A stretch of 64,000 nt of DNA. Source: a virus. The notes beneath the pieces were generated by a model. The model was not told where the DNA came from and did no database searches. It worked only from the letters and a program-made list of their open reading frames with translations. The stretch is from the IMG/VR virus record IMGVR_UViG_3300046777_002658, positions 32,001 through 96,000 of that record, one strand, 5' to 3'. A program made the translations under genes and the position numbers. Below are positions 9,425 to 41,826 of the stretch, piece after piece. Within the stretch, counting starts at the first letter, position 1. Each line of letters starts with the position of its first letter.

Positions 9425-12400
9425 ATGGAAGAAAATAGTAATTTACTAGACAACAACAATGATTATGATGATTACTCTGAGGAGCTCTACAATAATAACA
9501 CCTTAACAGAAGCTCCAACAGAGCAAGAGATAAGAGAGAACCCCTTCAGAAGTCTTATTGAATACAATATTAATCATGGCGGGGGAATTAATAAATTCTT
9601 TGACAGCTCAGACTATAACCAGTCTGACCCCTTTAAAGCCGCCGCAAACTTGAGTATTAGTTTTAACCAAAAGATGCTGGGGGTTGAAGCTAGAACTCAA
9701 AGAGAGTATTTAGAGTTTGCTGTGCAGGTACAAGCGGATAGACTGTCTTCTGCGATAGGTAGCTATGAAGCTGATATGCAGAGAGCAACAGGACATAACC
9801 TAGCTGGCGAGAGAGTAGAAACCTATAAATCTCCAAACGGCTTCCTGACTAGACCTACTCAATATGATACCTACTCCTTGTTCTCTAATCAAGAGGCTAG
9901 AGAAATGGGGCTAAGGTTGTCTATGTACCAACTACCAGAGACAAACACAGTAGTTGGTATCTCACAGCGCAGCAGAAGCAGCACAGAAATAGTAACCCAA
10001 AGCTTTTTAAACTCTGATCAATCAAGAAGAGACTTGTCCTCCACAAACTCACAAAGGTCTATGAGAGTCTTAGTGGGTAACGAGGTAGCTAGTAATATTC
10101 TTAATAGAAATGAGAATATAAATGTTTATGGTGTAGGAATGCCTCAAGGAGCTAACTTACACGCTAAGGTTGGGTATTTATATACTAATAATAGTCTTGA
10201 GACTGACTACAAAGATACTTTAAGAAACCAGAAAGCGCAAACAGCTTTTATATCTACACAAAATATTACCTCTGCCCTTCCAAAAGCTAATACCTCCGAG
10301 GAGATGTTAGTTCTTTCTAGAGGAGACATATACAGAAGCAATAACCAAAATCCGCTTACTTATAGAGACTCTATTCTTGACGAAAGAGAAGAAATTAGAA
10401 ATCGCTTAATAGATCAGTTAAAAGGTGTCACAGATGCTATAGCTAGTCTAGCTAAGTCTCAACAAAGACAGGTAGAAAAAAGCTTTAGAGAAAGTGTTAA
10501 ACAAGTTACAAAAGATAATATAACAAGCTTAGAAAGCATGAGAGCGGGTGCTAACTCCTCTGTGTTTGTAAATGAAGATATTTTAATAGAGATTAAAAAT
10601 AAAGTTAAAGATGCTGCTGAAAAAAGCAGCACTAAAAAGGTAGTTTTATCAATCCAGTATTTAGAGAATATATTTCTTGACAATAGCTCAAACTCTTCTA
10701 GCAGGTATGATAACGATGTAAGAATACCCATGCTAAACGCTCTGGAATTGTTATCAAAACAAGGTAGGTTAAGTCTTGCTACATCCAGCGTTAGTTTTGC
10801 TCCTGACCAAGGGTTGTTTAACATTTTAGATAAATTTCACTCCAATGAGATAACCGGTTATAGCAAAACAGTTTTAAAAACCCTTTTAGACAATAACTCC
10901 TTTTCAATTCTGCCTACTAGTTTTGCTCACAGTAAGACGTTTGCCATCTTTGATATGCCAGAATCTAGACCAGACTTAAATAAGCTTAAACTAGATAGTT
11001 TTGGTATAAGTTCTGCTAACTTCACCCGCAACGCTTTCGAGAATAATATTGAGACTGGTTTAATTCTTGATAGGGACAGCCTAAGAGGATTAACAGACCG
11101 AGAACAGCAAGATATAACAAACTACTATTATTATGGTGTCAGTAATTTTAATAGGCTAAGAGCTCAAGGTTCATTTGTAGAAAGTAGAGGCAATGCAGAG
11201 CAAACAGAAAAATTAATAGGTATTCTGACATCTATGGGAGGTCAGGAGTCCAGAGAAAGAGTATCCGGCTCTCCCTTTGTTTTTAGTAGACGTTATGACA
11301 TTAACAGAGGTGTTGAGCTATCTGGGTTAGATATACAAATAAGGGGTTTAGGACAGGGTGCTAAGGGTTACTCGTTCTCTGTCACTGTAGGACAGGAGTA
11401 TGGTCAGAATGGCTATGAACCGATTGTTTATCTTTCTAAAAACAATCGTGTGATCAACGGGATGATCTATAAAAATGATTCATCTCAAGCTTTACAACTT
11501 TACAACGGTGAGTACCTGGCTCCAGGAGAAACTAGACAGTTTAGTGCTTTGGAAGTAGTGGCTGGTTTAGTTGACACACTGCGCCACACAACGCTTTTTG
11601 AGGCTTCTAGAGGATCTTTACAGACAGCTATAAAATCAATGACGACTGCTACCAGACTGCAAGGTTTGAGTAGAGTTTTGGGTAACCTACTGTTTGAGCA
11701 AGCTCAGTTGAAGAACTATATGAGCTGGTTAGACAGTCAGGGTTCAGGTTTTACTGATGTAATGACAAACCTGCACCAAAGAGATGCTGGAGCCAGAGGT
11801 TGGTTAAACAATATTCTTAACGATGGGAAAGATCAGAACATAGCTACAAAAACACTAGCTTCTTTAGCAGAAAGACTTAGTATTCCTTTGAGTCAATCTA
11901 GTTTAGGAACTGAAGTAGCAAGTAGACTACCTGAACGTACAGCACAAATTCTGGATATTCTGAATAAGGAAATTGGAGGCGATCGCAGAGATGTCGCTAC
12001 AACTACTGCTGGAATGGTAAAAGCTTTAGACAGACTATTAATGAATAGTTTAGATAATAGCCAAACAGCAACTCTCTACACTGACCTCTTAAGAATGATA
12101 GTTCAGCAAGATGCTGTGGCTAATGATATATACGAAAGAAGTCAGCAGAGAGCTAAACAAGAGTTGTTTTCACAAATGACTAGTGCTTTCATGCAGCCTC
12201 ATGAGTTGAGATACTCATTTGGGCAAGCATTGTATAAAAGACCAGTTTTTAGCATTAATAATGATTTATCTAAACTAGCAAGGTCACAAAATACTCTAGG
12301 GCTGCTTCTTTCCCCTCATGGCTTGAGGCATGGTGAATCTTTGGGTGACACTTACATTAGAGCGATAGCTGATAGTGTGAGATTCACTGAAAGAGATTTA

Positions 12401-15400
12401 TACAGCAATCAAGGTGGTATTTATAAAGCAGAAGGTGGAGCAGCGACTATTCGTCATGCTGAATCAATGCTGGGAACTATGAGAGGTATAGGTATTCTCA
12501 GAAGGAGTGAGTATAGAGACAGATCTTTAGCTGCTTATATTGCTGTTGGTCTGTCTGATGAACAAGCAAGAAGGAGAACAGAAGAGCAAGAAAAAGAAGT
12601 ATTCAAATTACAAGAGTTGTCTGGTAATAGTTCAAGCAACCTGTTCTTCTTTCCTTATAGAGTCACAGAGCAAATCTCTGGACGATTAAAGAACCTACAG
12701 AGCGGTAGACCTCTAGAAGCTGCTTCTGCTAGATTTGCTACCTATGCCCATACTTTAGGAGTTGTTGGTAACGACAGTTATAGTGATTTATCTAATATGT
12801 TGTCTGGTAACATCTTTACAAGCCTACCAGAACATCAATATAAGTATCTGCAACAGTTAATTATAGACCACGGCAGTTATGAAAATGTTTTAAATTATAT
12901 TCGTACTAATATTCATGGTGATTCTTTAAGTCTAGTCAGAGGTTTACTTGGAGGATCAGCGCCTAAAAGAGTTTTACAGAGCATGGGTATCTCAACAATG
13001 TCTGACTTTGCTTATGTAAACTCAGAGTATAAGGACGCAGATAAAAACTCTTTAGAGTATGCTTACTTGCACAAAACCTCTATGAGTTTTGATACTACCC
13101 AAATTCTTAGTAACGTCGAGTTTGCTGGTAAAGTAGCCAGAACTTTAACTAAAGGTGTAACCTTCCTTGCTAAAGATACTCTTATAGATAATGTTAGTTT
13201 AAACAAACATCTGCAAGATAAGGTTCTAGAAGATATTGCAGCCATTGACTCAACTATCACTGGTAGTTTTAAAGAGCAGTTGCAAAAGTTGGATAAGGGG
13301 CAACTAAAAGATCTAGAAAAACTAGTTGCGCTGAAGTATAACACTGTCCAGTTTAAAGCCTCCAAAGGTCTGTTCTTCTTTAAGAAAGGTGTTCACTCAG
13401 CAGCAGAAGGCAGCAGCATAGAGGAAAGGCTGCATAGCAAAAGGCTGATAGGTGAGTTTCAAGAGACTAAAGGAACTTTTACTATTAATGGTTTTTACCA
13501 GTATGAAAGTATGGGCGGTCAAGAAAAGGCTGCTAAACTAATATCCTTTAAACTACCAGCTACCAGTCAAAGAATATATGGTGGTGTGACTGTTTTGCAC
13601 GAACAACCGAGAGTTTATTTTAGTGGTTCCTCTACTCTAAACCTAGAAATGGAGACCTCAACCATCGGTAGAGATAGTTCTGGTAGGAGACCAGGTAGCG
13701 ATACTAATAAAGGACCAAACTTATATCTTGCTGGAGACTTGTTTGACTTCTTAGACAAGTACAGTGGAACAAATAAAAACCTACTGCCTGACAGAGTTAA
13801 AGATCAAAAGATTTATTCAGTTATCTCCCCATCCCAGATTAAAGGTTTTAATTTTGAGCAAGGGTTGATGCTAATAGAGCAGAGACATGGTAATAGGTTT
13901 TTAGACCTAATAGAAAGTGATAGAGGTGGCAGAGCTGTCGCAGAAGGTCTAGCCTTGATGATGCTACAGTCTAAGGATAGCAATGAAGTGACCATCTCTG
14001 AGCTGCTTGGTCAAAGTTTAATTGATGAGGGTGGGGACAGAAAATCAGTAGGCTACTCTTTTCTTATGAAGCCTGGTGGAAAAGCTGTTGGTAAGAAACT
14101 ACCAGAGAAGGATAACAACCCAACAATCTCTTCTGCTTTACAAGGCAGCTTTCTTCTGTATGACCAGTTTGGATCTTTGGCTTTACCAGAGTTTTTGAAT
14201 AGTAACATGACTATAAGCCAAGCTCTCACTAAAACTGTAGCCCTAGCTCTTGGTACTGGTAATGATTCAGAGAAAGCAAGGCTGCACTTGAAGAATAGAA
14301 GTGCTGAAATCTTTAGGCAAGTTCAAAGAAAAAGTGATAAGGAATTAGGTGTTTTAGACCCTTCTAGATATATCTTCAGTGATGGGTTTGATAGTAGGTC
14401 AGCGAGCGTTCTGGCTTATCTAGTAAAAGCTGGGCAAGATTTGTTAGGTAAAGTTGATACAAATGCTAGGTTATCAGGCAACTCTATCAGTGAGGTAAAC
14501 CCTGCTTACTTTATGGGTACTGAAAATAGAAGAAGGTATCTAGGTGAAGTAGCAGGAGAAGACTCTAAAACCAGAAGAGCAATGTTAGCTTCTGTTAGAA
14601 GAGTGGCTGCTGGCTTAGGAGTACATCTACCAGCGCCAGAAGAAATTAATAATGCCAACGATGCTGAAAGAGGCATACTTGAAAGAAGACTAGAATACGG
14701 TCTTTCTCAAGTTAATGCTATGCTGCGCTTGAATAGATTCTTGGAGTTTGGTATGGAACAACTACCAAGCAAAGTATCTGTGGCAGTTGGTATGCAGAAC
14801 ATGACTAAACTAGAAGGTCAGTATGCCTTAGAACTATCTCAGCGGGAGTTAGGTTTGTTTACCAACACTTTGCAAGAGAAGCAAGATGTTTTGACCATTC
14901 AAAAGGCTGTTCTTTTACTAGGTAGTTTAATGGAAGGACATCTGCCAGACCCCTATAAAGCTTCTAAACTGTACAGTTTAAAAGTTACTAATCTTGCTTC
15001 TGCTAATGAAGAGGCAGGGTTTAGTAAAAGTTTACACTTCTCAACTAAATTCCTGAGTAACTTTAGTAGAGTAGCAGAGAAGACCTTGCCAACAGTTGTA
15101 AAAGGAAAAAGAGGATTTAGCACTCCCTTAGCGGAAGATGCTGTTCTAGCTTATATGTTTGGTGCAGATGCCACTAATGCTAACAACTTAGTAGATAAGA
15201 TGGGTTTAGTAAGAAGTCAAGTTAGCGGGATGGTGTTACCTTCAGCTCAAGATGCCGAGTTTGGTGTAGACCACAGAAGAAGATTGTTAGAGCAGACTAT
15301 CCTCAGCGAACTAAAGATTGATCCAGAGCAAAGAAAAGCAATCCAAAACGAAGTTATAGGAATTATAAAAGACTTTGAGCCTACAACTCGACTAAAGGCT

Positions 15401-18400
15401 ATTAGAGGTAGCAACCCTGGTAGACAAGACTTTATTAATAGAAACCTTAGAAACGTTATTATAGAGCGTGCAGAAAGAACTTTGCAAAAAGGTGAGAAGC
15501 TCATAGCTCCAGTCTCTTACTACGAAGACTTTTTCTACAATTTAACAAGAGGATTAGTTGATAAAGAGCCAGCAGTTTTAAAAGAGTTTTCTGACCCAGA
15601 CACACAAAAAGTTGCTACTTACCTAACAGACGACTTGCTTAGAGCAAGTGGTGTATATAAGCATTACCAAGGAGAACTAAATGAGAGAATCAGAGCTTCT
15701 CAAACAACTGGTACTGGGCTAGAGTATATCAGCTACGGTCTAGAAGTTTTGAGAAGTGTAAGCAGTAAGTTCTTGAGCGGAACTGAACCAGAGAAAAAGA
15801 AAGCTCAAAGCTTGTATGACTCTATAACCAAAACCCAAAGGTTGGTTCTGCCAGTGCTGACTGGTTATGGAATGAAAGAAGGTCGCTACGAAGTCAGCTA
15901 TGCTTCTACAAGAACTGAAAGCCCCAACCAGGGTTTGCTGTTAGGGTTAGACCTAATGCAGAAACTTTCTTTGGTATTCCAAGGTGAAAGCCACGCTGCG
16001 CTGGATACACAAGTTGCTTTGGTAAGACAACTAGACGCTACAAAAGGCATCTTACAGAAGCTTAGGTCTGGAGGAAAAGTAGAGTTAGATGACTATGAAC
16101 TAACTCAGTACCGCAGACTAGAGTTTTTAATGAGAGAATCTGTTGAAACCACTGCTCAACTGTTAAATAATCAAGAGACTATCAGACAAGCCGGGAATGA
16201 CAGACTGAAGTTATCAGGTATTAGTGCGATCGCTATGTCAAGCTTGTTATTAGCTGATGATGAAGTTGGCTTTGGCTCAAGATTTGATGAAGTGACTTCT
16301 ACAGGTGATAGATCTAAGTTTGGGTTAAGAGGGCAGATTGGTAGAATGCACAGAGAGCTTGTTAGTCGAGCTAATCAGGTGTCAAATGCTCAAAGAGAGC
16401 TTGACAATATGTCAATCCAATTAGCAAAAGAAACTGGGACTGGGATAAGTGGTAGAGAAGTAGAGCTTTTAGTAGGTACAGAGCACAGGAAGATGAGCTC
16501 TTTAATCAATGAATGGAAAGACAACCAAAGAAAACTAAAAACCGTTGAGAGGCTTGCTGCTTCAGCCAGACAAAACAGAAGTTTAACACAACGTGAAGCT
16601 CAAGAGATAGAACAACTTGGGGCTACAGATAAACAAGCGGGAAACCGTCTTGTAAAAATCAACTCCTATGTAACTAAAAAGCTTTTAAAGGCATTTGGTT
16701 TAGTCTACAGAAAAATAAGAGAAGCACCAGAAGTAGAAGGTGAAAGATATAATTTAGTCGAAGTAACCAAAACTAGACCTCTTATTATAGGAGGAGAGGT
16801 AGAGTCTTACGCTAAAGACGGCAGTAGAATTAAACGCTATAAAGAGTATGGAGACTTAGAAGTTGGCTTAAAGGATTCTAATCATATTATAGCCTTCAGT
16901 GATATTGATGAATTTGAGAAAATAGCCACAGGTAAATTAAGAAAAGAAGGTATTGCTATTGGAAAAAGAATAAAAGCTCAAGAATCTTATATACAAAAAC
17001 TAGAGACTAAACTTAGAGAAGCTCCTTTTATACTAGCTAATAAGCAAAGTGAACTTGAGTTATATTTACAAGACACAGCAACCAAACTAAACAACCTTAA
17101 GTCAGCCTTTTTAAAAGAAGAGTTAAAACCTAATCAATTAATAGCTGTTACAGACTTAAGACCATTAATATCCTCAGACAACAGAGTTGATTTCTTAGAG
17201 TTTGCTAACGAGTATATCTTGAAGCTCTTAATGTCTGATAATACTAAGGCTACCTCCAAAGAATATGAGAAAGACAGAATATTAAGAGAGAAGCTAAAAA
17301 CTATTCCTTTGTTTGAGAGGCTTTTAGCTGCAAAAAGAAGAGATGCAAAAGCCTCAGCCAGAGCAAATTTTAATCTTATTGAAGGTGTTTACTATAATGA
17401 TGCTACTAACGTTAGACAAGGTAGCCCTTCTGGGGCTTCTGTACCAGCTGATAGTGGGACAAGATTTGTTAGTATAGTTCCTGTAGAGACAGAACTGGCT
17501 GGTAGAGCCGAGGCAACAAAAACTTTTATAACTCCTGCCCAGCAGCAATCTAGTACAGTAATGCTGGTAGCTGCTTTAGGGCAACATTATACGCAATTAG
17601 GGGATAATGACGGTGACAGTTTCCAAGGTGCTGTTACTCAGTTAGCAAGCATAACAAGACTAATCCAGCAGCAGCAAGAGAAGATTCAAAAGTTAGCTGC
17701 TTCTAAGAAAGACTATTCACATGATGTTTCTTTATCTGATGAGCAGATAGAACACTTTAACAATCTTAATGAAAAAGCTGTCAGAGCAGAGTTAGCAGAG
17801 TTAGAGGTCCACAGAGATGTGTTGCTAAAAGCTTATCAAGAGAAGAAGTCTAATGCTAGTGCTAAAGCTGCTGAAGGAATGAGAAGGTTTACTGCTACCT
17901 ATACAGCAGTGCCAGAAGAAATGATGGGACCCAGCGGAGTTCTAAGAGATGAGCAACATCAACCACTAGTTAAGCAATATAGAGACACCTTAGATGGTGT
18001 TTATGGAAATACTAAACACGCTGTAGATGCTATTGGAAATTTAAATGCTGACGTGTTATCTAAATTAGAGTTAACACAATCTGGTACTGGCTTTAGGGTT
18101 GATAATCTTACTGATTTAAATTTAACACAAGAACAGCAAGATGGGGTTAGAGCCGAAATTGATTGGTATAACCAACAGTTTGGTAGAGACCATCAAGACC
18201 AACAATCCTTTAAAGAAGCTATCATCATCCAGCAAGCTACTAAAGCTAACGTTAACGCTGCTGTGAGCAACGTTAGTAACAAACAAATTCCAGCTGCTTT
18301 AGGGTCAATAGTTGATGACCAAAGACTAACAGAACTACAGTCAATTCTTGGTGCTTCTGGTTCAGGTTTGTTGGGTACTACATATAATACTGTAGTTCCT

Positions 18401-21187: not shown

Positions 21188-21711
21188 AGATGACTAGCGG
21201 GTCATTTGTGGAAAGTAACAGGTATAAAAAGATTTTAGCTCTAACAAGCAAGGCTAATTACTATGTTCTAGGATTTGGAAGATATACACCTTGGACTTTA
21301 GACTTAACGCCTCCTGTTGTATCAGGAGTAGAAACTAGCGTAGACGAATTATTTGGTTTTATTAGAGTTATACAAATTACTGGTGTTGCTAAAACAACTC
21401 AACAGCTATCTGATTTTAGTGTGAATGGTGATTATTATAAAAAATTACCAAATACTGTACAAGATTTATCTACTGCTAAGTGTAAAGAACTATGCTTTGA
21501 AGGAACTCTGACTCATTCTGAAATAACTCAACCTAGCTGGAGGTCATTGAGCTTACATGAGTCACCTACAGCTCTCACACTTACAGGATTTATTACTGCT
21601 ACTTTAGCAGGCTTATCTTTAACTTACCTAGCACACTTTAGACCTAGAACTAAAGAGAGTGGTGCAATAGAGACTATCCGATTGATACTTCCTATTGATG
21701 GAGGGCTGTAA
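21172..21711 (+). CDS. Putative baseplate wedge-like protein; probable start ATG 21190
   Basis: YYVLGFGRYTPW...PP resembles the N-terminal motif of T4 gp8-like wedge proteins; follows the giant tail gene. Confidence 0.45.
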   Translation: MDGGLKMTSGSFVESNRYKKILALTSKANYYVLGFGRYTPWTLDLTPPVVSGVETSVDELFGFIRVIQITGVAKTTQQLSDFSVNGDYYKKLPNTVQDLSTAKCKELCFEGTLTHSEITQPSWRSLSLHESPTALTLTGFITATLAGLSLTYLAHFRPRTKESGAIETIRLILPIDGGL

Positions 21712-28795: not shown

Positions 28796-29902
28796 ATGAT
28801 TGATTATAGCATTGTTTCCCGGCATCCGGTGTTTGGTTTTCCTGATAACCAAGATATTTGGAAACAGACAGATAAGCTGCACACACGTCGTCCTAAATCC
28901 TGGTTACGCTATAAGTGGGTGAAGGATAAAGTTGCTCTAGTTTGTCAAAGGTTAGGGTTGCCAGCGGAAGACGTAATGATTTCTAGACCTCCTAACTACT
29001 TCTTTAGTCCTCACATTGCTTACCTCTACGTGGGTTGGCTTCTTGGAGAAGATGAAGCAGTAAGATTCTACAAACATTATCTGATCACACCAGCAGAGCC
29101 AGAGTACAGAGAGTTTAACAAAGATAGGTCTTTAGCAGCAAGCTCCAGCAATCTAAAAAGATATGCGACACCCGAGATATTAAGCTTAGTACCCAATAGT
29201 TTTGAGGGGATTAGTTTCCAGACTTATGGTACTGCTGAAAAACCTTTTTGGTATGCAGATGATGTAGCAAGAGCTTTAGGTCTTACACATCAAAGAGATA
29301 TGTTGAGGTATTTAGAGGAGGATGAAAAGGGGACGGTTTTAACCCACACCCCTGGGGGACCTCAGCAAAAGACCATCGTGTATGAGCCTGGTCTTTACAC
29401 TTGTATATTAAGAGCTAGAGCAGCTACTACTAAAGGAACTCTAGCCTACAAGTTTAGAAGATGGGTGACTCACGAAGTGTTACCTTCTATAAGGATGTAT
29501 GGTTCTTACAGAAATAACATAAGAAAGAATTACATAGACGTAAACAATTTGTTTGCTAACTCACCTTCTCACCCAAATGCTCTTTTATTACATGATTTAG
29601 CTAGTAAGATACAAGCAGATGACAAGGAGGGGCTGCAGGCTTTGTTTGAACTGGCTAAGAGGTTAATGCCCGGTAATGATGAGTTGTTTGATAGTATGCT
29701 ACCTAAAGTAAGACAAGCAAAAAACCCTACAAGAGTAGGAGAAGCAATAACTTGGGAAGGAAGAACACAGACTATACCAGAATGGGCTAGAGAAATGGGT
29801 ATGACAGACTGTAACCTCAGAATACGAATTAGAAACTGGGGTTTGGAGAGAGCTATGTCAACACCTAAAGAAGAGAGGTTTGACAGAACAAAAGCAAGTT
29901 AA
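28796..29902 (+). CDS. BRO-N (antirepressor-like) DNA-binding protein with KilA-N-like N-terminus
   Basis: PFWYADDVARALGL...EPGLYTCILRAR...FRRWVTHEVLPSIR is BRO-N; FSPHIAYLYVGWL resembles KilA-N; C-terminal WEGRTQTIPEWAREMG is a small helical DNA-binding motif. Confidence 0.75.
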   Translation: MIDYSIVSRHPVFGFPDNQDIWKQTDKLHTRRPKSWLRYKWVKDKVALVCQRLGLPAEDVMISRPPNYFFSPHIAYLYVGWLLGEDEAVRFYKHYLITPAEPEYREFNKDRSLAASSSNLKRYATPEILSLVPNSFEGISFQTYGTAEKPFWYADDVARALGLTHQRDMLRYLEEDEKGTVLTHTPGGPQQKTIVYEPGLYTCILRARAATTKGTLAYKFRRWVTHEVLPSIRMYGSYRNNIRKNYIDVNNLFANSPSHPNALLLHDLASKIQADDKEGLQALFELAKRLMPGNDELFDSMLPKVRQAKNPTRVGEAITWEGRTQTIPEWAREMGMTDCNLRIRIRNWGLERAMSTPKEERFDRTKAS

Positions 29903-29926
29903 TAACCGTAACTAACTAATTAAATA

Positions 29927-29958
29927 ACCCCTTGAGTTTTTACTCAAGGGGATTTTTT
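29927..29958 (+). terminator. Intrinsic terminator-like hairpin
   Basis: CCCCTTGAGT-TTTT-ACTCAAGGGG followed by ATTTTTT after the BRO gene. Confidence 0.65.
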
Positions 29959-30069
29959 GTTGTTTACAAACGATAGGTACTACAAGCTATAAAGCACCAT
30001 ACTCACGACGAACGGTTCGTCGTGGGTATTTTTTATAGTCCGACAGCCGCTTAGACCAAGGAGGTTCGC

Positions 30070-33000: not shown

Positions 33001-36000
33001 ACTGGTCGTATCTCTCATGAGTTCACTTTAAGTGACTCTGACTTACTTGTTATGTATGGCAAGCACAGATACTGCTGGCATGAGTATGCTGGCAACATTG
33101 AATCTGGTACAAGGATAAACTTAACCTTCCGCATGGTTAAGAAGCCTGTAGTAACCCAACCAGAGGTAAGAACTGTGGAGCAAAGGACTGTAAAAACAGA
33201 ACGTCTTGTTGATACTACTGCAGTGAAGCAGAATCAACAGCCTGCAGCAAGAACTGTTCAGGATAGAGTAAGGGTTAACCCAGACTTCAAGCCTCAACCC
33301 AGAGCAAAAACCTTGCCGGAGCCTGGTTTGCTACCTCAGTCAGAGGTTGGCAGAATCAGTGGCACTCCTCAAGGTTGCTCTCACATCTTTGACTTTAAAA
33401 ACAATGAGTCTAAGAAAGGTCTTGATGAGGTTATTGTAGCAGCTTTCGCTGTAAGGTTAGACCCCGTTAAAGGGCAGCCTGTAGAGTGTAACATTAACAC
33501 TCCCTCATATGCTTATAACGATGAGTTTACTCACTACGGGTATGAAGATACTCTTACCACTAAAAAGGGTGAGAATATGAATGTTATAAGCTTGGGTGCA
33601 GCCGCTACAAAGGCTCTACCAGCTCATCTGACACCAATTATACTTTCTGTTTGCAACCACTGTTTAAATGGTGTGCGAGAAGAGTTTATACCCACAGCTC
33701 TATCATCAGTGAACAGAGTTAACAAGAAGGCTAATCTGCAGATTATTCTTGGGCAACCAGGTGGTGAATCCTGCTTGACCAAAGAGAAAGCCATCCAGGC
33801 ACCAGAATCTAGCTCTAGACAAAAGATGGGAGCAGCTATACTAGAAGGTGAGTCTAAAGAAATCCCTTCCGTAATATTCCACGATGACGGACAGGGACAT
33901 ACTCCCACGTTTGTTAAGTTAGAATTTTCTGGAGATGGTCTAGAAACTATTCTTGCAGACGGTAAGAGACACATCTTTATCGTAGTTGCTTGGTACGACA
34001 AGAGCAAGCAAACTTACTTTGAGAAGGGGGGTAAGCAGTACAGAATCTACCCCCACACTGCTAGTGTCTTCCATGTTGATGACTTAGAAGCTGTCTTTGG
34101 TGGTCAGAAAGTATTTAAGTTTGATGAAAGAGCTCTTCTAGGGTTATCAGCAGAGCCTGTAGTTGAGGCTAAAGCTGTTAAACCAGAGGTTAAAGCTCTT
34201 AACAGACCTCTTATCAAACCAGAACCAACAAAAGCAACCTCTGAAGAGGTTACAGAAGTTCAACAGTCTGTTGATAAGGCAAATCTAGCCAAAGAGCTGG
34301 CAGATCTTCACAAAGCCACCAGATTAAAAGGTCTTCCACTGACCAAAGGTCTAACAGAAGAAGACTTAGAGAGCATATTTGTTTGCATGAGTCCTGATGG
34401 TCAGATAGCTCACAGAACTCTAAGCTACATCAAGTCCAGAACCGATGGCAAACCTGTGCAGCTGTTTGATTGGACTAAAGCTGATGTTCTTAAGGTAGCA
34501 AAAGTTTTTGTAGACCTTTTATCGCCTACAAAAGCAACAGCAGATCAACAGGTGTTCCGCTACCGCAATACTGAAGAGGGCTTGTTGCTTTCCTTTGACG
34601 CTGGAACTATTGAGTTCTTGATAGGCAATGATGGTCGTGCTTATAATGCTGCTGATGGTCGTGCCTTTGAGCAAGGCATGGAGCTGATAGGGTACAACGC
34701 TTTAGATATGTCTTGGTGGGACTCTCCAGAGTATGCTAAAGCTAAAGCAGCACTAGCCGCTGCGGGTAAGAAAGAACCTGAAAAAGATGTTTCTTACTTC
34801 CAAATAGTTAATGGAGAGGTTCAGACCAGAGAGGAGTACAAACCTGAAATCACAGATGTTTGTTTCTCCTCCTCCATCGGTAAGTTCATGCAGGCTTTCT
34901 GTGCTTACTTATTGATGTTTGCTCAAAGCAAGAACAACACTCGGGGGGGCTTGGGTGACAACTTTAAGATTCTTTTGAACAAGTGCGAGAGTGTTATCTC
35001 TATGACCGAAGGAGATATCCTTGGTCAAAATGGAGGTTTCTTGTACTCTGTGCAAAACAGTCCTAAACTGTACGTTCACAGAGAGCAGTGTGACATATTT
35101 GCACTAGAAGAAGACAAGCTGAAAGACTTGGCTAATTCAGTGGCAACAGTAGTCAAGGGTTATGATAAAAAGCCACCAGAAGAGATGCTCAAAGTGTCTT
35201 CCACTGACACTCAGTCTCTAGCTATGAAAGAAGCTTTCAAGAAGTATCCTGCTTTGGGCTTCCACTTTGCTAAGGGTACTTTTATCAATGGTCTGACCCA
35301 TCTCAGACTAGCTACTCTTCAAAAGTATGCTCCAAACTTGTTTAATAAGACTCTGCAACTAACAGGGTTATCAGTTGAGGCTGCTGTTGAAAGTGTTGTC
35401 TCTTTAACTCTAAAAGCTTCTAAGGGTGCTAAACGAGCAACTTTAGCCTTAGCCAGAGCTGTTGAAGTGTTAGGAGAAGTGAAAGCTGGCTGGGCTTTCT
35501 ATGGTCAAGAGAAGGTGCTGACAGGCTGGCTTGTGCAAGAGTGTATGGCTCCTACATTTGTCATGGCTCCTGGTATGTCCTTCTTCTTAGGCAATGAGGA
35601 GGAGAAACCAGTTGCTTTAGTCAAGAAGACTCAGACACAAAACTACCCCAAGTTCTTGGCTAGTAACCTTGCTGAGGCTGTGAGCATGACAGGCGTTACT
35701 GAGTATCAAAGATGCCTGGCAGATCACAGACCCACTCAAACCTATGATGAGGTTTCAGCAACCTACCGCATCACCTTTGATAAAGAGGTAAAGCTAATCA
35801 AAGGCACAGAAATTGCTTTTGTTAAAAAGGAAGAGGGTCAGGGAGCCGATGCCGTCATTATTTTCAATGACAACGAGAGAGCCACTCTCAATGAGATAAC
35901 CTGGAGAGTCCATAAGGATCTTGTAGGTGAGTCAGTCTTGGTAGTCAACTACTCTTACACCCTACACCACCGCAACCCTAAACTGCGTGGTGTCATCAAA

Positions 36001-39000
36001 ACCATGATGGCTTCCTGCAGTAAAGAGTTGTTGTACAACTTCTTTAATGAGCCAAAGTTAACAGCTTTGGGATTAAAGGACATCAAGCTAGTATGCCCGC
36101 AGGATACTATCAAGTCTGATATGCTGTACTCTTGGCTAATGGTGATAGGTAACACTATCAGACACAACGACCCAACTAACCCTCACATTGCTAAGTTGAT
36201 TAGCTTAAGAGATCAACTCAATGAAGAGATGATGGGTGGTGCTGATTACGACCCTGACACCATTGTCATTAACCCAGCAGCAGTAGTAGCTGGTCTCTAC
36301 TCTGACTTGATTGCTTATTTTGTTAAGCACTTTGGTCATTCCTTATGGATGCACGTTCAACAACCAGAAGACCAAGGAGAGATCATGAATCGCCTGTATG
36401 TTGACCGCGTTGCCCAAAAAGCTGGCTGGGTAGAAGTACCTAAGATAGCTTGGGGTGAGTATGAGGAGGCTCTAGCTACAGCTAGACGTATGGAAGGCTA
36501 TACAGTCAAGCTATACGCAGAGTCAGTTGATTATCTAAAGAATGACAAGCAGAATGCTTTGTTGTTTACTTTAGACGCTGATGGAGTGGTAGTTGAATAC
36601 TTCCATCGTTCGTTCTGTTTTGTGGGTGCTGAAGGAGCACCTGTCTATGGTGTAGAGCTATTCGAGTCTAGCACTGTGGCTGAGGCTATCTCTGACTCCA
36701 GACATATGCCACCATCTGTGCGTTCACTCTCTCGCATGGAAGGAGTTGCTTTTGATGATGCTTGGGCGCTTCTAAACGCTGGTAAAGAGAAGATGTTTAT
36801 GTCTTTGGTGATTGCTGGAATGTCATCCTGTGACAAGTTCAACTGCTCTAAGACAATAACAATCCTAGAGCGTGGTGCTGAGAAGGACAAGAACCTGATT
36901 CTCTCTCCAGAAGACAAGGATTATTTCAATAGCATTTTAGTTGAGAACAAAATCAGCTTGGATTTCCATGAAGAGGAGCAGTTTAAAGCTGTAGCTTATG
37001 CGTTCAGAGATATTGTGTTTGTAGCTAAAGGCAAGACCTACTGGCTACCTGCTTTGTTTGCTATCAACAGCTTGAAGTCTGAAAACTCTACAAACAACCT
37101 TGCTCAACAGTTCTTTAGAGATATTCTTGTTGAGTGTCTAGCTGGCAGAACTGTGCCCGCAATAGAAGGTTCAAGAGCTGCTGGTATCTTGGATAGTCTA
37201 TGTGACTCTGCTTCTACCAAGAAGTTAATCACTGCTGCTGATAATATGGCAGCCAAGCGGATTGCTCTGGCTCACATTCCTGCTGGAGAGATTCATATTC
37301 TCAAGAGTACACATCCTGCCAGTAACTACCAAAACCTGCTCAGACACAAGTTTGACTTGAAGAGCGTAGAGGCTGGTAAGTCTACTATCTTTGTTCACAA
37401 CTCTCGCGCTCCTCTAACAGATGGTTGTCTGTTAAAGCTTGTAATAGTAACAGAAGAGCAAAACAGTAAGAACTTCTGGAAGTTAGACTCTGACAGCTTT
37501 GCTCTTGGGAGTATGGGTAACGGCATGGACTTTGGTGACTTTGACGGTGACGGTCACTATTTTGTTCAGCTTGTGGGCACTGACTATACAGTATCTACCT
37601 TTGACAGCATTGCTGACTTTATCACTGATGCTGTTGGGTACAACATTTTCAACACCTATGCCAACCCAGAGAATAAGAAAGGAGAGCCAAACGAAGCTTA
37701 CCTAGCTGACCACTACAACATCAAGAAGTGGTCTAAGGTTGATGAAACCTTATGCAATATGGGAGTCAAGAAGGCTACAAAGTCTAGTGCTACCTACTTG
37801 ATGTATAACCAGAATGCGCGTGAGATGCAAGCCAAAGCAACTGGCATTGCATACTCTGTGTATATGTGGTCTGAACACCTTGTAGACATCCTTCTAGCGT
37901 ACAAGAAGCTAGGCGGTGTTTTACCATTTGGTTTTGAAGCTGCTGCTGATGGTAGTTTAGTAGCCCCTATCTCTCAAGTGTACGAAGTTATTCTTGGTGG
38001 ATTTTCAGACCCTGCTTGGGCAGTCTACACCAAATACTTCCTCAAAATGAAGGAAGGTGAGCGCACAGTGTTTGACCATAACTTAGCCGAGTTTAACAAA
38101 GACTTGATGGCTATGGGCATCACTGGTCAAAAGCAAGCAGGGTTTAGTGCTCTGATGTTTGCTTCTTACCACTTATTCTTTTTAGAGAAGTGGGGTGAGT
38201 TCAATGACTATGAAGTAGACATGGTTACTAAGAACCCACTACCTTTAGAACTAAAAGGTATGTTAGCCTGCGCGTTGGTTTCCTTTGAGCTGATGCGAGG
38301 TAAGTTCCAAGGGTTTGTTGGTGCTCTGGAAGTCGAGAAAGGTGGTAAGGTGACAGGTCACAAGACTGCTATGAACTTTGCTAGAACCTTCCTATTAAAC
38401 AATCCAGGCATGGTGAGTGAGTCATTAGTTTGTAAACAACTAGCTCAAACTATTGAGGTTTGTAATCACCTGCTAGAAGGTAAGCCTCGCCCAGAAAGAA
38501 CTCTTGCAACACCAGGAGTTATTCAAGAGCGCACTGTAGCTGTTCCTACTTCTAACTTGTCTGATGAGGCTTTACAGTATTTCTTAACTAAAGTAGGTGC
38601 ATCTGCTGTGGTTAAGGAGACTAATGACTCTGATGATGAAGGTGGCAGCAAGGTTAGTGCAGAACCTAATACTCCTGACAATGGAGATGGTGGTGCAGCT
38701 GTAGAAGCTATAGACTATGCTGCTTATCTAGAAACTGAAGAAGTTGCTGCTCCTACAATTGAAGAGCTTGTGTCTGTTAGTTCTGCGGTAGTTGAAGAAT
38801 ACTACTCTGAGTCAGAGCTAGAAGAGCCAGAGTTTGCTGCTACCCCAGCTGTTCTTACAACATCTGAACCAAGCAGCTCACAGTATGAGTTTGATGCAGA
38901 TGGTTTTCTTGTAAATTGGCTAGACCACGCGCTTGCCACTATAAACTGGCAAGAAGAAACTCTTGTGATTGACTACACAGGTTCTAAACCTTGTTACTTA

Positions 39001-41826
39001 CTCAAGGGTGAAGGTCTCAAGTTGCACTCTTTAGTATCAAAAGGTTGGGGAGGAGCCTACTACTTTGAGGGCTTAGGAGAAGATAAAAAGGCTCCAGTCA
39101 TCTTTATGGATCAAAGTGTTGAAAGAACCGTGAAGGCAGACCAAGAGTTTAATGAGTTAGTGAGTTCTTGGGCTGAGTGGGCTGGAGAAACTATCGAGGC
39201 GCCAGAAGAGTTCTCAAAAGTCCTGATGGTCAGAGGTGAGGTAATAATCATTGAAGATGAAGATGAAGAAGAGCCAGTACAATCAGAGGTAATAGAGAAT
39301 GGAACAAAACAGAAGATGGCGACGTTAATGCAAGTGGTAGAACAACTACCAGAGTCTGCTTTAGATAAGCTACTAGCTGAGGGTGAAAGGCTACTAGCAG
39401 AATTAACCAAAACTAAAGAGCCAGTAAGAGAGGCTCTTAAAACAATAGAACCTACTGTTACCTGTACTTCCTGCTTAACAGTAGCAGAACCAGTTACTGA
39501 TGAAGCACCCTCTATAGACATACCTAGTGAAGGGACACAAAAGCAGTCAATAGTTAGTTTTACCTCCAGAACTAAGAGGGCTGACAAACCAGAAGTAACG
39601 AACAGTTCGTCAAGAGAGATTCTTCAAGCTGAGTCTGTTGTAGAAAATGTTGAAGTTGTAAAAGCTCATCCTTTAGATGGTCTTGCACCTTTGAGGTCTT
39701 CCACAGCAAAACACATGATTAAAGACATAGCTATGGCTGCTGTGGCTACTCAGTTCATTGGTACAAGTGCTGTATCTAAACCTTCTAGCACAGAGCTTTA
39801 CAGACAAGCCTGGGCTGATTGGAAAAGTGGTTGTGCCAACACAGGTGTCTACACTGCTGCTGACGTAGTAATGGTATCTGGTAACGGCTTGGGGAGGGCT
39901 ACAGAGGCTCAAATAGTAGAAACCTTTGCAAAGAGCTATATCCCCTACCTGTTGTTGGTAATCAATGCCAAAGCCACAGTAGTAGTTGGTGACTGTCCTG
40001 GTATGGACTGTTGTGTCAGAGATTACTTAGTGGGGCATGGCTATCAAAATACATGGGTTGCTGCCAAGATTGGTGGTTATAACAGACTCACACCTCCCAC
40101 CCAGCGAGAAAGAAAACTTGAGAGAGCTGTAGTTAAACAGTCTGTAGAAGCTGTAAAGATTCAACCAGAAGGAGACTGGGTTGAGGCTCTTGTTAGTAAG
40201 TTAGAGCCTTGGACTGGTAACCAGATAAAGAAAGCTCTAGCAACTCTTAGCTCTGAGCAGTTAGAGGCTGCTAGAATCATCATCCAACACGCTCTAAGCA
40301 ACACTACCGCTAAAGTTGCAGAGTTAGACCCTAAAGACGTGGTGGGTGGTCACATCCTCACTGGTAAAGCTGGTACTGGTAAAACCTACGCTACTCTTGT
40401 AATCATCATAGTCCTAGACTTGCTAGGCTTTCGTGTGGTAGCTTGCGGAACCACGGGTCTGGCTAGTCAAAATCTCAAAAACTCTTCTGGTACAATAAAC
40501 AGGGTTTTAAGCTTGGGTACAGGCTTTGAAGAGAGAAAAGATACTGAGGGAAACCTGCTGCCAAGAACTGAGGCAGACATTAGCCAGATAATACTCAAAA
40601 TGAGTAAGGATGGTAAAGTAGCCAAAAGACTATCTGAGCAAAGCAACAACAAGAACTATATAGGAGTAGTTCTGCTAGTTGATGAAGCCTTTATGCTTGG
40701 AGGAGATTTAGGTATCGCCGCTGCTGAGGGCTTAAAGACCATTGTTGGGCTAGAAGCTCAAAATGGTAAAGTCCGTCAGAGACCTATTCAGTTATTAATG
40801 GTTGGAGATCCTAAGCAGCTAGAACCAGTAAAAGACAGAATGATATTCGAGGAAGGTGAGTTCCTAGAATATTCTGACAGCACAGAAGTTCAGAAATACC
40901 ACGCTTTTACAGACCGTCTGAATCTAAAGGTTATTAAGCTAGAGAAGAACGAAAGGCAGTCTGGTGATACTGCTTTTGGCTTAGAGTTGGACTTGCTGGG
41001 AGAGGGTAAAGCTAAAACAGACCTGAGTAACTGTCCTGTTTTGTTGAGTAGATTTAAGGCTTCTCTCTCATGCCAACCCGCAGATGCTTTGCATATCATC
41101 TACAATAATGATGAAGTTGCCAAGTTTAATAAGTCTAAGCTAGACGAGCTTGTCAAAAAAGGTGCTTTCAAAAGAAAGTTTGAGGCAATTATTGACTCTA
41201 GTAGATGTGGCGAGAGTGAATTGCTATCTTACGTTGCTCCTACTCCTAGAACTTTAGAGTTAGTAGTGGGTGCTCCTGTCAGAGTAACCCAAAACATCCC
41301 TAAGAACGATGGCACAGACAATCTGTTAGTAGCTAATGGCGAGCGCGGAGTTGTGGCAAGCATGACCAAAGACAAAGTGACCGTCAAGTTCAAGGATGGT
41401 CGCTTTGAGGAGCTAGAAGCTGTAGAATCCAGAAAAATTCCGGTAGACGAAAATGGTGCACCAATAGGATCTTTCAGACAGCTTCCCTTATGCTTGTGTT
41501 GGGCTACTACTTTTCATGGTAGCCAAGGTCAAACCTACCCTAAAGGTGAACCTGTCATAGTGCATATGTACTCTCGTAAGGGAGGTAAGCATGATGGAGA
41601 GCTTCAAAGAGTATGGTCTAACAACGCGTTCTACGTTGCTTGTAGCCGCGTAACCCGCTCTAAAGACTTATTCTTTTACACCGGGTTGGGTGTTGATGAA
41701 AAAGCTGAAGGAGTGACTGATGAGGAGTTCACCAAGCAAAGGATGAACACTTACTTCAATCACTTCAAGCAAAGCTACAGATTCAATGAGAAGGCTATTG
41801 CTTGGTTAAACAAGCAGTCCTGCTAG
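30070..41826 (+). CDS. Giant 3918-aa multidomain protein: AlkB-like dioxygenase + single-chain two-barrel RNA polymerase + possible SLOG domain + Pif1/RecD-like SF1B helicase
   Basis: AAGGAGG RBS. HQD (32911), H (33079), RINLTFR (33112-33132) = AlkB. SRAP (37402-37413) 44 aa before DFDGD (37537-37551) = RNAP active centre. GKAGTGKT (40363-40386), DEAFM (40681), GDPKQLEPV, HGSQGQT, YVACSRV = helicase motifs. Confidence 0.8.
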   Translation: MAYRQQQTLVCSAKAEVRQNQPSHSAVDTAAPSGQTNCSGNENNSSKVLTMSYSMSALLLSLSIVVKSVKKVAPSMSMRNKVARASRKAQQRLARAKRQARQVKNGWLRSSAYQKLCREADHASRISCITPPASSAGKAGSSSRPIVKYSRLSDGEGVYALTPAIRVHRTFVAPVTRRERHLAAREQLKAAGLLPNQAPALGKALKEQRKAKAKVKSLTFSPVARPRDIEKAAQQLEKAAAKAARLSEVVKVAGHAVSKKKEQREEIFVQKVEAVTAPPTLLKLAARCQRLRQRYYKSQDEQDYKVWQEAEEDYAFLCKKKEQREEIFVQEVVTPDDFLAQLEFLRTQLDQNMAPPVVPQEFATAAAEIVDDYKAQAEATGTKDMTMLMSLSSPIKNSAGEDVQVITITGNWSGNEIDPQLKAASKDVMVNLVGKNKLQKAEFTKRGFVLVTQEWYCLPLEQNKQLIKETPVRPPIVSRTSSNPPKLVKTDRADGVKYLHLYPNSVTPKNIKELLAEPKELEVLVNISSERLIVENRDKFVEFLRANGFENYSTHADWLVLPAGRKFAERVVKAGVVFSEEEESFNKLWVTVDGVDLVEATLAPRKPTENMDDIENEELWNRLGIAEAVRQAVATALSDYLYADVWFSYDTSISLEVTELLAEFGFASKYDCFLLKPALREPVNKDVKSMYITVHTKTKAGVASGSFTVGDTTIPVEVDQKATEPANRLLCVKQAIAYAINAGAKAVSVEVSHANYDLNKLAAWKAAGFKGKSNVELLKDIESLTHYLSVTWVNPKNKAKEVANTVVRETVAQVTKVQASVTTSHKVIGGEAYAEEGLLYYPKILFKETRDLLLEDLQAVLDSGAVEKTSFGPYQYTCLGDYYWTWENKKGVYSTTQPNGSPVAAVPKRLREIVEVWLNGELKVWEGQYVVESCLVNFYEGKQKLNCHQDISEEIDAPIVSFSFGATGRFLIREGARTGRISHEFTLSDSDLLVMYGKHRYCWHEYAGNIESGTRINLTFRMVKKPVVTQPEVRTVEQRTVKTERLVDTTAVKQNQQPAARTVQDRVRVNPDFKPQPRAKTLPEPGLLPQSEVGRISGTPQGCSHIFDFKNNESKKGLDEVIVAAFAVRLDPVKGQPVECNINTPSYAYNDEFTHYGYEDTLTTKKGENMNVISLGAAATKALPAHLTPIILSVCNHCLNGVREEFIPTALSSVNRVNKKANLQIILGQPGGESCLTKEKAIQAPESSSRQKMGAAILEGESKEIPSVIFHDDGQGHTPTFVKLEFSGDGLETILADGKRHIFIVVAWYDKSKQTYFEKGGKQYRIYPHTASVFHVDDLEAVFGGQKVFKFDERALLGLSAEPVVEAKAVKPEVKALNRPLIKPEPTKATSEEVTEVQQSVDKANLAKELADLHKATRLKGLPLTKGLTEEDLESIFVCMSPDGQIAHRTLSYIKSRTDGKPVQLFDWTKADVLKVAKVFVDLLSPTKATADQQVFRYRNTEEGLLLSFDAGTIEFLIGNDGRAYNAADGRAFEQGMELIGYNALDMSWWDSPEYAKAKAALAAAGKKEPEKDVSYFQIVNGEVQTREEYKPEITDVCFSSSIGKFMQAFCAYLLMFAQSKNNTRGGLGDNFKILLNKCESVISMTEGDILGQNGGFLYSVQNSPKLYVHREQCDIFALEEDKLKDLANSVATVVKGYDKKPPEEMLKVSSTDTQSLAMKEAFKKYPALGFHFAKGTFINGLTHLRLATLQKYAPNLFNKTLQLTGLSVEAAVESVVSLTLKASKGAKRATLALARAVEVLGEVKAGWAFYGQEKVLTGWLVQECMAPTFVMAPGMSFFLGNEEEKPVALVKKTQTQNYPKFLASNLAEAVSMTGVTEYQRCLADHRPTQTYDEVSATYRITFDKEVKLIKGTEIAFVKKEEGQGADAVIIFNDNERATLNEITWRVHKDLVGESVLVVNYSYTLHHRNPKLRGVIKTMMASCSKELLYNFFNEPKLTALGLKDIKLVCPQDTIKSDMLYSWLMVIGNTIRHNDPTNPHIAKLISLRDQLNEEMMGGADYDPDTIVINPAAVVAGLYSDLIAYFVKHFGHSLWMHVQQPEDQGEIMNRLYVDRVAQKAGWVEVPKIAWGEYEEALATARRMEGYTVKLYAESVDYLKNDKQNALLFTLDADGVVVEYFHRSFCFVGAEGAPVYGVELFESSTVAEAISDSRHMPPSVRSLSRMEGVAFDDAWALLNAGKEKMFMSLVIAGMSSCDKFNCSKTITILERGAEKDKNLILSPEDKDYFNSILVENKISLDFHEEEQFKAVAYAFRDIVFVAKGKTYWLPALFAINSLKSENSTNNLAQQFFRDILVECLAGRTVPAIEGSRAAGILDSLCDSASTKKLITAADNMAAKRIALAHIPAGEIHILKSTHPASNYQNLLRHKFDLKSVEAGKSTIFVHNSRAPLTDGCLLKLVIVTEEQNSKNFWKLDSDSFALGSMGNGMDFGDFDGDGHYFVQLVGTDYTVSTFDSIADFITDAVGYNIFNTYANPENKKGEPNEAYLADHYNIKKWSKVDETLCNMGVKKATKSSATYLMYNQNAREMQAKATGIAYSVYMWSEHLVDILLAYKKLGGVLPFGFEAAADGSLVAPISQVYEVILGGFSDPAWAVYTKYFLKMKEGERTVFDHNLAEFNKDLMAMGITGQKQAGFSALMFASYHLFFLEKWGEFNDYEVDMVTKNPLPLELKGMLACALVSFELMRGKFQGFVGALEVEKGGKVTGHKTAMNFARTFLLNNPGMVSESLVCKQLAQTIEVCNHLLEGKPRPERTLATPGVIQERTVAVPTSNLSDEALQYFLTKVGASAVVKETNDSDDEGGSKVSAEPNTPDNGDGGAAVEAIDYAAYLETEEVAAPTIEELVSVSSAVVEEYYSESELEEPEFAATPAVLTTSEPSSSQYEFDADGFLVNWLDHALATINWQEETLVIDYTGSKPCYLLKGEGLKLHSLVSKGWGGAYYFEGLGEDKKAPVIFMDQSVERTVKADQEFNELVSSWAEWAGETIEAPEEFSKVLMVRGEVIIIEDEDEEEPVQSEVIENGTKQKMATLMQVVEQLPESALDKLLAEGERLLAELTKTKEPVREALKTIEPTVTCTSCLTVAEPVTDEAPSIDIPSEGTQKQSIVSFTSRTKRADKPEVTNSSSREILQAESVVENVEVVKAHPLDGLAPLRSSTAKHMIKDIAMAAVATQFIGTSAVSKPSSTELYRQAWADWKSGCANTGVYTAADVVMVSGNGLGRATEAQIVETFAKSYIPYLLLVINAKATVVVGDCPGMDCCVRDYLVGHGYQNTWVAAKIGGYNRLTPPTQRERKLERAVVKQSVEAVKIQPEGDWVEALVSKLEPWTGNQIKKALATLSSEQLEAARIIIQHALSNTTAKVAELDPKDVVGGHILTGKAGTGKTYATLVIIIVLDLLGFRVVACGTTGLASQNLKNSSGTINRVLSLGTGFEERKDTEGNLLPRTEADISQIILKMSKDGKVAKRLSEQSNNKNYIGVVLLVDEAFMLGGDLGIAAAEGLKTIVGLEAQNGKVRQRPIQLLMVGDPKQLEPVKDRMIFEEGEFLEYSDSTEVQKYHAFTDRLNLKVIKLEKNERQSGDTAFGLELDLLGEGKAKTDLSNCPVLLSRFKASLSCQPADALHIIYNNDEVAKFNKSKLDELVKKGAFKRKFEAIIDSSRCGESELLSYVAPTPRTLELVVGAPVRVTQNIPKNDGTDNLLVANGERGVVASMTKDKVTVKFKDGRFEELEAVESRKIPVDENGAPIGSFRQLPLCLCWATTFHGSQGQTYPKGEPVIVHMYSRKGGKHDGELQRVWSNNAFYVACSRVTRSKDLFFYTGLGVDEKAEGVTDEEFTKQRMNTYFNHFKQSYRFNEKAIAWLNKQSC

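Follow-up and report, generated by a model that had tools for sequence, protein, structure and literature searches.

Two giant DxDGD proteins and two classes of upstream motif suggest a candidate early-transcription machinery in a cyanophage-like myovirus

The question raised by the phage DNA described here is "Which enzymes transcribe its early genes?" The DNA is a stretch of 64,000 nt (hereafter the window), bases 32001-96000 of the IMG/VR virus record IMGVR_UViG_3300046777_002658, which is 196,877 bp long with an estimated completeness of 94%; coordinates are window positions unless "genome" is stated. An earlier reading of this DNA (the original prediction) had singled out two very long open reading frames (ORFs), here called ORF-A and ORF-B, as two-barrel RNA polymerases (RNAPs), one carried by the virion and one made after infection, each paired with its own class of upstream motif. 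Both ORFs were recovered with exactly the predicted coordinates and lengths, and each does encode a DxDGD motif, DNDGD at amino acid (aa) 2727 of ORF-A and DFDGD at aa 2490 of ORF-B, which is the single D.DGD of its protein and is invariant in all 13-14 relatives of each. Across the whole genome only three D.DGD motifs occur in all six-frame open frames of at least 100 aa, and these two proteins hold two of them.

9425-21187, plus strand: ORF-A (P0001, 3920 aa), ORF and translation; candidate virion-delivered two-barrel RNAP
30070-41826, plus strand: ORF-B (P0002, 3918 aa); candidate non-virion two-barrel RNAP with accessory domains

Do these proteins and the motifs around them amount to a transcription system of the phage's own? 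Our favoured explanation is that the locus encodes an early-transcription machinery in which ORF-B would serve as a non-virion RNAP, ORF-A as an ejected RNAP and a phage sigma factor as the late switch, and we give this explanation as a whole a probability of about 0.42. ORF-B, for which about a dozen full-length relatives were found in metagenomes, is the better supported of the two candidate polymerases, and its features are as follows.

32578-33132, plus strand: AlkB-type 2OG-Fe(II) dioxygenase, ORF-B aa 837-1021 (PF13532, 1.9e-28; PDB AlkB chains, ~1e-4)
34417-38619, plus strand: conserved core of ORF-B, aa ~1450-2850, from the conservation profile
35980-36000, plus strand: K1971-x-R1973-x3-K1977, candidate barrel-B basic residues (50/50 invariant)
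37405-37551, plus strand: R2446-A-P2448, 41 aa, then G-D2490-F-D-G-D2494, candidate barrel-A catalytic loop (50/50 invariant)
40351-41772, plus strand: SF1B Pif1/Dda-like helicase, ORF-B aa 3428-3901 (phrog_325, 1.6e-35; AAA_30 and AAA_19; PDB Pif1, 6e-16 with the family profile)

A profile of ORF-B aa 1880-2880 matched 84 representative clusters at E < 1e-3 among 1.8 billion proteins, with lengths from 216 to 4532 aa, and by this search the core founds a so far unannotated superfamily that numbers at least 84 clusters; a Pfam RNAP domain was found in 0/30 of the superfamily members tested. In a 50-sequence alignment of the superfamily, at about 20% identity, K1971, R1973, K1977, D2012, K2015, E2199, R2446, P2448, G2489, D2490, D2492, G2493, D2494 and D2547 are invariant (50/50). 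Eight residues are known to be invariant in all two-barrel RNAPs, namely those of D-x-D-x-D, those of R-x-P, which stands some 35-45 aa ahead of it, and three in the second barrel (an Asp and two basic residues), the reference positions being Rpb1 R446/P448 for R-x-P and Rpb2 K979, K987 and D837 for barrel B (Ruprich-Robert and Thuriaux, PMC2919709). ORF-B has five of these eight outright (D-x-D-x-D and R-x-P) and good candidates for the basic pair. The local context is also suggestive: a hydrophobic strand, N-S-R-A-P-L, 41 residues, GDFDGD and a second hydrophobic strand parallel the arrangement in beta-prime, in gp64 and gp96 of phage P23-45 and in YonO of the Bacillus prophage SPbeta. With hhalign, the top matches of ORF-B to rpoC, gp64 and gp96 have their motifs in register (P = 0.03-0.04, and 0.03-0.15 over all such comparisons), and an ESM feature search with the core was weakly suggestive (0.79-0.81) of a link to viral clusters with PF05183, an RNA-dependent RNA polymerase (RdRP) domain, in 16-19% of their members.

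Several observations on ORF-B pull the other way. In beta and QDE-1 the barrel-B Asp precedes the basic residues, whereas the candidate in ORF-B, D2012, which is the one invariant acidic residue in their vicinity, follows them. Full-length hhalign comparisons of the ORF-B family with YonO, phi14:2 gp66, gp64, gp96, rpoB and rpoC were not significant, and Pfam PF05183, PF00623 and PF00562 gave no match to the genome even at E <= 10. An AlphaFold2 model of aa 1680-2879, built from a 14-sequence alignment, had a pLDDT of 43, and below 50 around DxDGD, and Foldseek returned only noise for it. Pfam RNAP models likewise gave no match to ORF-B, and PDB sequence searches with the single sequence and the profile found only the AlkB and Pif1 domains. 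However, RNAP families share no significant similarity beyond a small region around DxDxD (Chaban et al. 2024, PMC10770324), and weak profile scores for ORF-B are therefore expected and decide nothing. For ORF-B the conserved residues fit the active site of a two-barrel enzyme; the structure prediction and fold search proposed with the original prediction yielded models too poor (pLDDT 43 and 57) to confirm or exclude the predicted barrels in either protein. On this evidence, the ORF-B core is probably a two-barrel polymerase.

If ORF-B is a polymerase, what does it read, and what reads ORF-B? The claim that two motifs unlike sigma70 promoters partition the adjacent genes was borne out, and both are strand-specific.

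25995-30050, plus strand: class I units at 25995, ~26789, 27368, 27429, 27785, 28640/28654 and 30043, mostly after a hairpin with a T-run
41913-60100, plus strand: class II units, consensus tttt-a-AAAAAAGAatAGtGa-tG (23 copies at 41921-60095 by a looser pattern)

The class I unit consists of a hairpin, a T-run and t-T-ACAGCCGC-tTAG, and ends 10-35 nt before start codons. Exact ACAGCCGC occurs seven times against 0.6 expected, all on the plus strand within 2.8 kb (27368-30161), and genome-wide it is found eight times on the plus strand and once on the minus strand; the copies at 25995 and ~26789 are variants, and 19 nt separate the last copy from ORF-B. The elements have no -35/-10 pair, and their region shows no excess of sigma70-like sites (3 vs 4.7 expected) but one of terminator-like hairpins (19 vs 4.9). 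A point against reading class I as a promoter is that, at 10-35 nt from the start codons, it overlaps the Shine-Dalgarno region; since it sits on the ribosome-binding site, an RNA-level or translational element is possible. Class II, AAAAAAGAWWRR, is present in 19 copies against 1.15 expected, again all on the plus strand and mostly 20-50 nt before the starts of small genes, and related variants run on to genome 164 kb; by reading, it has no recognisable -10 hexamer and is not sigma70-like. Both classes are kept at equivalent positions in two relatives. In L018, a distant relative with proteins at about 50% identity, TACAGCC-GTAAGGAGGC units precede the ORF-B homologue and six small genes, and 17 genes downstream of these have class II copies; nine class II copies occur in equivalent places in L017.

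Three further observations belong to these regions. One ACAGCCGC (30154-30161) and two class II-like AAGAAAAAAGAACAGAGA (30844-30860 and 31024-31040) lie inside the N-terminal coding part of ORF-B, where they could be internal starts or chance. A listed 267-aa ORF (25940-26743) starts upstream of a strong terminator-like hairpin (25954-25980) and of the class I variant at 25995, and the true start of this gene is probably later, an ATG being present at 26022 in another frame. The class I block opens with a stretch of repeats, placed between the divergent PAAR cluster and the earliest class I unit, that could be the first promoter, an origin or a DNA-end signal; it is followed by a 45-nt stretch identical in L018, with DNA identity of 85% over 200 nt where proteins are about 50% identical.

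25700-25940, plus strand: tandem repeats, 23-bp GGCGGAGCTGGGAGAAAAG-like units in 4-5 copies, and GATAGCTGGTAGA repeats

The mechanism that we propose follows from this layout. ORF-B, a single-chain polymerase of the beta/beta-prime-like kind inside a giant protein with AlkB and a Pif1-type helicase, would initiate at class II, the A-rich motif, in front of about 25-40 early and middle genes. The element that precedes ORF-B and the 5-7 small genes upstream of it is a different, GC-cored one, class I, and these genes would therefore need a reader that is present at the moment of infection. The best candidate for that reader is ORF-A: apart from ORF-B, no large protein of the genome contains DxDGD. 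Is ORF-A, then, a polymerase?

10142-11104, plus strand: PLD-like region of ORF-A, aa ~240-560, with HAK and HSK motifs (PLDc_2, sub-threshold)
13547-13924, plus strand: conserved "beta-like" block of ORF-A, aa 1375-1500, with R1424..K1431-G followed by KGFNFEQGLMLIE (invariant in 13-14 members)
16322-17374, plus strand: variable helix-rich insert of ORF-A, aa ~2300-2650 (conservation 0.20-0.47; long helices in the model; split site in L021)
17414-17629, plus strand: beta-prime-like stretch of ORF-A, R2664-Q-G-S-P2668, 58 aa, then G-D2727-N-D-G-D2731-SFQ (invariant in 14 members)
20492-20914, plus strand: C-terminal hydrophobic Gly-rich segments of ORF-A, candidate membrane segments, by reading of the translation

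Twelve full-length relatives of ORF-A (35-97% identity) and one split form were found in metagenomes; a search of the IMG/VR contig behind L011 for a further homologue came back empty, but carries no weight because this contig stops within the ORF-B homologue. Throughout the 14 members, including the distant P0112, G-D-N/Y-D-G-D-S-F-Q and the upstream R-x-G-x-P are invariant, and in a motif-centred window hhalign aligned 25 columns of ORF-A with the ORF-B superfamily at P = 3.4e-4. The split form is found in L021 (L021:91-16159; ENA NODE_224, 135.8 kb), where the homologue is divided into a 2607-aa ORF covering ORF-A aa 14-2313 and a 2052-aa ORF covering aa 2548-3910, so that the break falls between the beta-like and beta-prime-like parts. 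Between the halves are a 460-aa ORF and a gap of ~600 bp, and a true split, an intron or a mobile insertion would each account for this arrangement.

The evidence for ORF-A is thinner than that for ORF-B. Its R-x3-P, 58 aa upstream of the loop, is not the canonical R-x-P. No demonstrable homology between the ORF-A and ORF-B families extends beyond the ~25 columns in hhalign, and hhalign of the ORF-A family with YonO, phi14:2 gp66, P23-45 gp64 and gp96, rpoB and rpoC gave nothing significant. The beta-like block fits beta in two incompatible ways. Its best hhalign match in E. coli beta is residues 795-820 (NGYNFEDSILVSE), a match that is not significant (P = 0.077), that pairs GFNFE(Q/A/S)G with NGYNFEDS, that reverses the order of the barrel-B residues and that puts Q, A or S at the position of Rpb2 D837. 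A by-eye alignment made with the original prediction set the block against the lysine-rich segment of beta and DIVLNPLGVPSRMN, whereas hhalign pairs KGFNFEQGLMLIE with NGYNFEDSILVSE; with two incompatible mappings the by-eye matching must be regarded as soft. Finally, an AlphaFold2 model of aa 2050-3249 from a shallow alignment had a pLDDT of 57, and below 50 around DxDGD, and a fold search with it found only generic helical hairpins. Taking both sides together, we put the chance that ORF-A is a polymerase at slightly short of even.

ORF-A has no Pfam, PHROG or PDB sequence match, with the single sequence or the family profile, except the weak PLD-like one. PLDc_2 recurs below threshold in the same place in P0001 and in the distant family members P0013 and P0012 (E 0.056, 0.0025 and 0.00019 in the three proteins), and the JGI name for the relative P0014 is PLD-type synthase-like enzyme. 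Accordingly, the decoration with PLD, AlkB and helicase domains that had been described is confirmed for the AlkB and SF1 helicase of ORF-B, the PLD of ORF-A being recurrent and sub-threshold.

Would ORF-A be in the virion at all? The original prediction placed it in the tail module, in the position of a tape measure, and this was not confirmed. ORF-A starts 79 bp from a divergent head operon (major head protein, protease and portal, 2857-8096, minus strand), while the sheath, a putative tube protein and a gp6-like wedge form a separate minus-strand module 10-25 kb away. What follows ORF-A is baseplate-like and PAAR-like, and the order head operon, ORF-A, baseplate-like gene, PAAR-like gene is kept in L018.

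21172-21711, plus strand: 179-aa virion/baseplate-like protein directly after ORF-A (phrog_1394, virion structural, 3.6e-7; Pfam BW3TFN, 9.7e-5, below cut-off)
24444-24746, minus strand: PAAR-like spike-tip protein (phrog_281, 1.5e-6; weak PAAR_motif in the syntenic L018 gene)

A third giant protein lies outside the window (P0028, 4239 aa; genome 183614-196333, minus strand; L010:117-12833). It has a PLD-like domain at aa 469-582, an M23 peptidase at aa 3737-3838 and many Gly/Ala-rich hydrophobic stretches of the kind usual in membrane segments, and it lacks DxDGD. An ORF-A paralogue it is not, as there is no BLASTP similarity between the two and no DxDGD. Compared with ORF-A, P0028 has more the look of a tape measure or ejection protein, and no further candidate for a tape measure was identified. 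With the sheath, tube and wedge genes elsewhere, ORF-A diverging from the head operon and the M23 peptidase in P0028, a tape-measure function for ORF-A is not established. A virion role is likely. Because ORF-A lies among virion genes and has hydrophobic C-terminal segments, we propose that it would be packaged and ejected like N4 gp50, crAss-like gp66 and P23-45 gp96.

The alternative that survives best, although we consider it unlikely, is that only ORF-B is a polymerase and ORF-A a giant ejected or tail-associated structural protein, in which GDNDGDSFQ is a metal- or ligand-binding loop; the class I genes, ORF-B included, would then be read by the host RNAP via an unusual promoter or a packaged factor. 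The PLD-like domain, the helix-rich regions and the hydrophobic C-terminus suit a structural protein, as do the helices around the motif in the low-confidence model, the unusual R-x-P spacing, the ambiguous barrel-B region and the lack of a profile link to any RNAP, and relatives of P23-45 without a virion RNAP express their pre-early genes by other means. Against a structural ORF-A are the absence of a -35/-10 pair from class I with no enrichment of sigma70-like sites there, the 25 columns around GDxDGD shared with the ORF-B superfamily in the motif-centred comparison, the natural split in L021 that resembles beta and beta-prime, and the synteny of ORF-A and ORF-B, which persists even in the distant relative L018.

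Alternatively, could the two-barrel core of ORF-B act on DNA, in priming, repair synthesis or replication restart, with its own helicase and AlkB, class II being a site for a phage activator of the host RNAP like the T4 MotA box? Its fused domains are of the repair and replication type (AlkB and the SF1B helicase, with DUF4326 and NADAR domains also carried by relatives), the archaeal enzyme PolD is a DNA polymerase with a two-barrel core, and no canonical DnaB helicase was found in the genome. However, the genome separately encodes a primase Zn ribbon of the DnaG type, a family A DNA polymerase whose gene carries inteins (genome 132-172 kb; HNH and LAGLIDADG domains), an SF2 helicase and RecA, as well as a 5-hmdU DNA kinase and ribonucleotide reductase. 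The separate primase, DNA polymerase and SF2 helicase make it less necessary for ORF-B to serve in replication. In addition, ORF-B stands at the junction of two promoter-like classes and not in the replication module, class II reads as lacking a -10 hexamer, and the phage's only sigma gene is downstream of class II-type motifs. We regard this alternative as improbable.

Least credible of all is that neither giant is a polymerase, the DxDGD motifs being convergent acidic loops and the upstream motifs terminator-linked leader, translation or RNA-processing signals in operons of the host RNAP: the homology evidence is indeed all at motif level, class I does overlap the ribosome-binding site and both classes follow hairpins, but R-x-P, GDxDGD and the basic trio are jointly invariant over 50 very diverged sequences, a chance D.DGD is expected only ~0.05 times per 3,900-aa protein (an estimate from residue frequencies), and the motif DNA is extremely conserved where proteins have diverged to 50%.

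Returning to the favoured explanation, in which ORF-A would serve class I and ORF-B class II, how would late genes be transcribed? The original prediction had overlooked a sigma70-family protein encoded at genome 117453-118535 (plus strand; Sigma70_r2, 1.5e-17, also r3), directly before the minus-strand tail-fibre block. The presence of this gene implies a third tier in which the host RNAP would transcribe late genes, and the protein is probably the late-gene switch, which would direct the host enzyme to these genes after the two phage polymerases have acted. No T7-like (PF00940), multisubunit or other RNAP was found in the genome, although the control for the PF00940 search was silent as well. 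A programme of three tiers, with the virion RNAP acting first, the non-virion RNAP second and the host RNAP last, fits the layout, and the predicted two-polymerase cascade is plausible overall: its arrangement of genes and motifs has the logic of P23-45 and is kept at ~50% identity, while the R-x3-P of ORF-A departs from the canonical form. We infer the pairing of each polymerase with its promoter class, the folds and the packaging in the virion.

With regard to the phage itself, the label "cyanophage" is reasonable because the HIP1 palindrome GCGATCGC, which is characteristic of cyanobacterial DNA, is present in 11 copies where 0.05 would be expected; from this sequence signal the host is probably a cyanobacterium. 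The contractile tail is backed by a 1149-aa sheath homologue and the gp6-like baseplate wedge, in the minus-strand module that also includes the large terminase. DNA and tblastn searches found no related record among GenBank phages, and Rfam and tRNA scans of the window found nothing. Genome 132-172 kb also encodes a thymidylate-synthase-like enzyme, which together with the 5-hmdU DNA kinase suggests hypermodified thymidine, and copies of IS200/IS605 TnpA and TnpB. The palindrome GACGAACAGTTCGTC and close variants occur at least eight times genome-wide (e.g., window 51000, 25954-25980 and 29999-30029) and also in L018, often as the stem of terminator-like hairpins. An element, AAGCTAYRTTGAGTTTRT, is common to window 9380 (minus strand), upstream of the head operon, and genome 30895 (minus strand), upstream of the sheath gene; it may be a late promoter, although just two good copies occur. 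For AAGCTAYRTTGAGTTT, a candidate late-promoter element, two good copies were found.

What, then, would be new? We can imagine an undescribed lineage of ~200-kb cyanophage-like myoviruses with three transcription tiers and two giant, mutually unrelated two-barrel RNAPs, of which the ORF-A type also occurs split into beta-like and beta-prime-like parts and the ORF-B type is coupled to AlkB and a Pif1-type helicase and founds the superfamily of at least 84 clusters; this fuller picture is possible, if on balance doubtful. If this is true, the two-barrel polymerase superfamily, the early evolution of which is debated, would gain two new and strongly diverged families, among them the first transcriptase fused to AlkB and a Pif1-type helicase, a fusion suggestive of a link between transcription and repair or counter-defence, on DNA that is possibly hypermodified, given the 5-hmdU DNA kinase. 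The promoter-like elements, which are compact and highly conserved, and the 84-cluster superfamily could also yield orthogonal expression tools for cyanobacteria.

The closest known system is that of P23-45, and the precedent invoked in the original prediction is real: a cascade of a tape-measure-fused virion RNAP, gp96, and a non-virion RNAP, gp64, has been shown experimentally (Chaban et al. 2024, PMC10770324). As in P23-45, there is a giant DxDGD protein among the virion genes and a second DxDGD protein whose gene comes last in a small pre-early block that has a motif of its own, early and middle genes carry another class of motif, late genes are left to the host RNAP (here implied by the sigma factor), and similarity to other RNAPs is confined to the DxDxD region. 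The differences are nevertheless considerable. No sequence homology of ORF-A or ORF-B to gp96 or gp64 is detectable; P23-45 is a long-tailed siphovirus, whereas the present phage is contractile-tailed; gp96 has its RNAP in the N-terminal part (aa 327-1124) and itself contains a metallopeptidase, whereas here the M23 peptidase is in P0028; gp64 has 616 aa whereas ORF-B has 3918 with AlkB and helicase; and the motif compositions are inverted, P23-45 having an AT-rich motif before its pre-early genes and a GC-rich one before its early genes. The crAss-like phi14:2 gp66 (PDB 6VR4), with the QDE-1-type RdRPs (PF05183), is similarly a large single-chain two-barrel enzyme with a DFDxD motif and is encoded among giant virion "cargo" proteins, but PF05183 has no match in the genome, hhalign was negative, and gp66 is a virion enzyme whereas ORF-B lies among early genes. 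YonO of SPbeta resembles the candidates in being a phage-encoded single-chain two-barrel RNAP with its own promoters and the same DNDGD as ORF-A, yet it is non-virion, has only 839 aa and shows no detectable homology. The logic of the proposed cascade is also that of coliphage N4, in which gp50, a virion RNAP of ~3,500 aa with a central polymerase domain, is ejected, early genes encode a second phage RNAP and the host RNAP serves late transcription, although the N4 enzymes are T7-like single-subunit RNAPs, not two-barrel ones. If the favoured explanation is true, the scheme of a virion and a non-virion RNAP would extend beyond N4, phiKZ/AR9, the crAss-like phages and P23-45 to large cyanobacterial phages.

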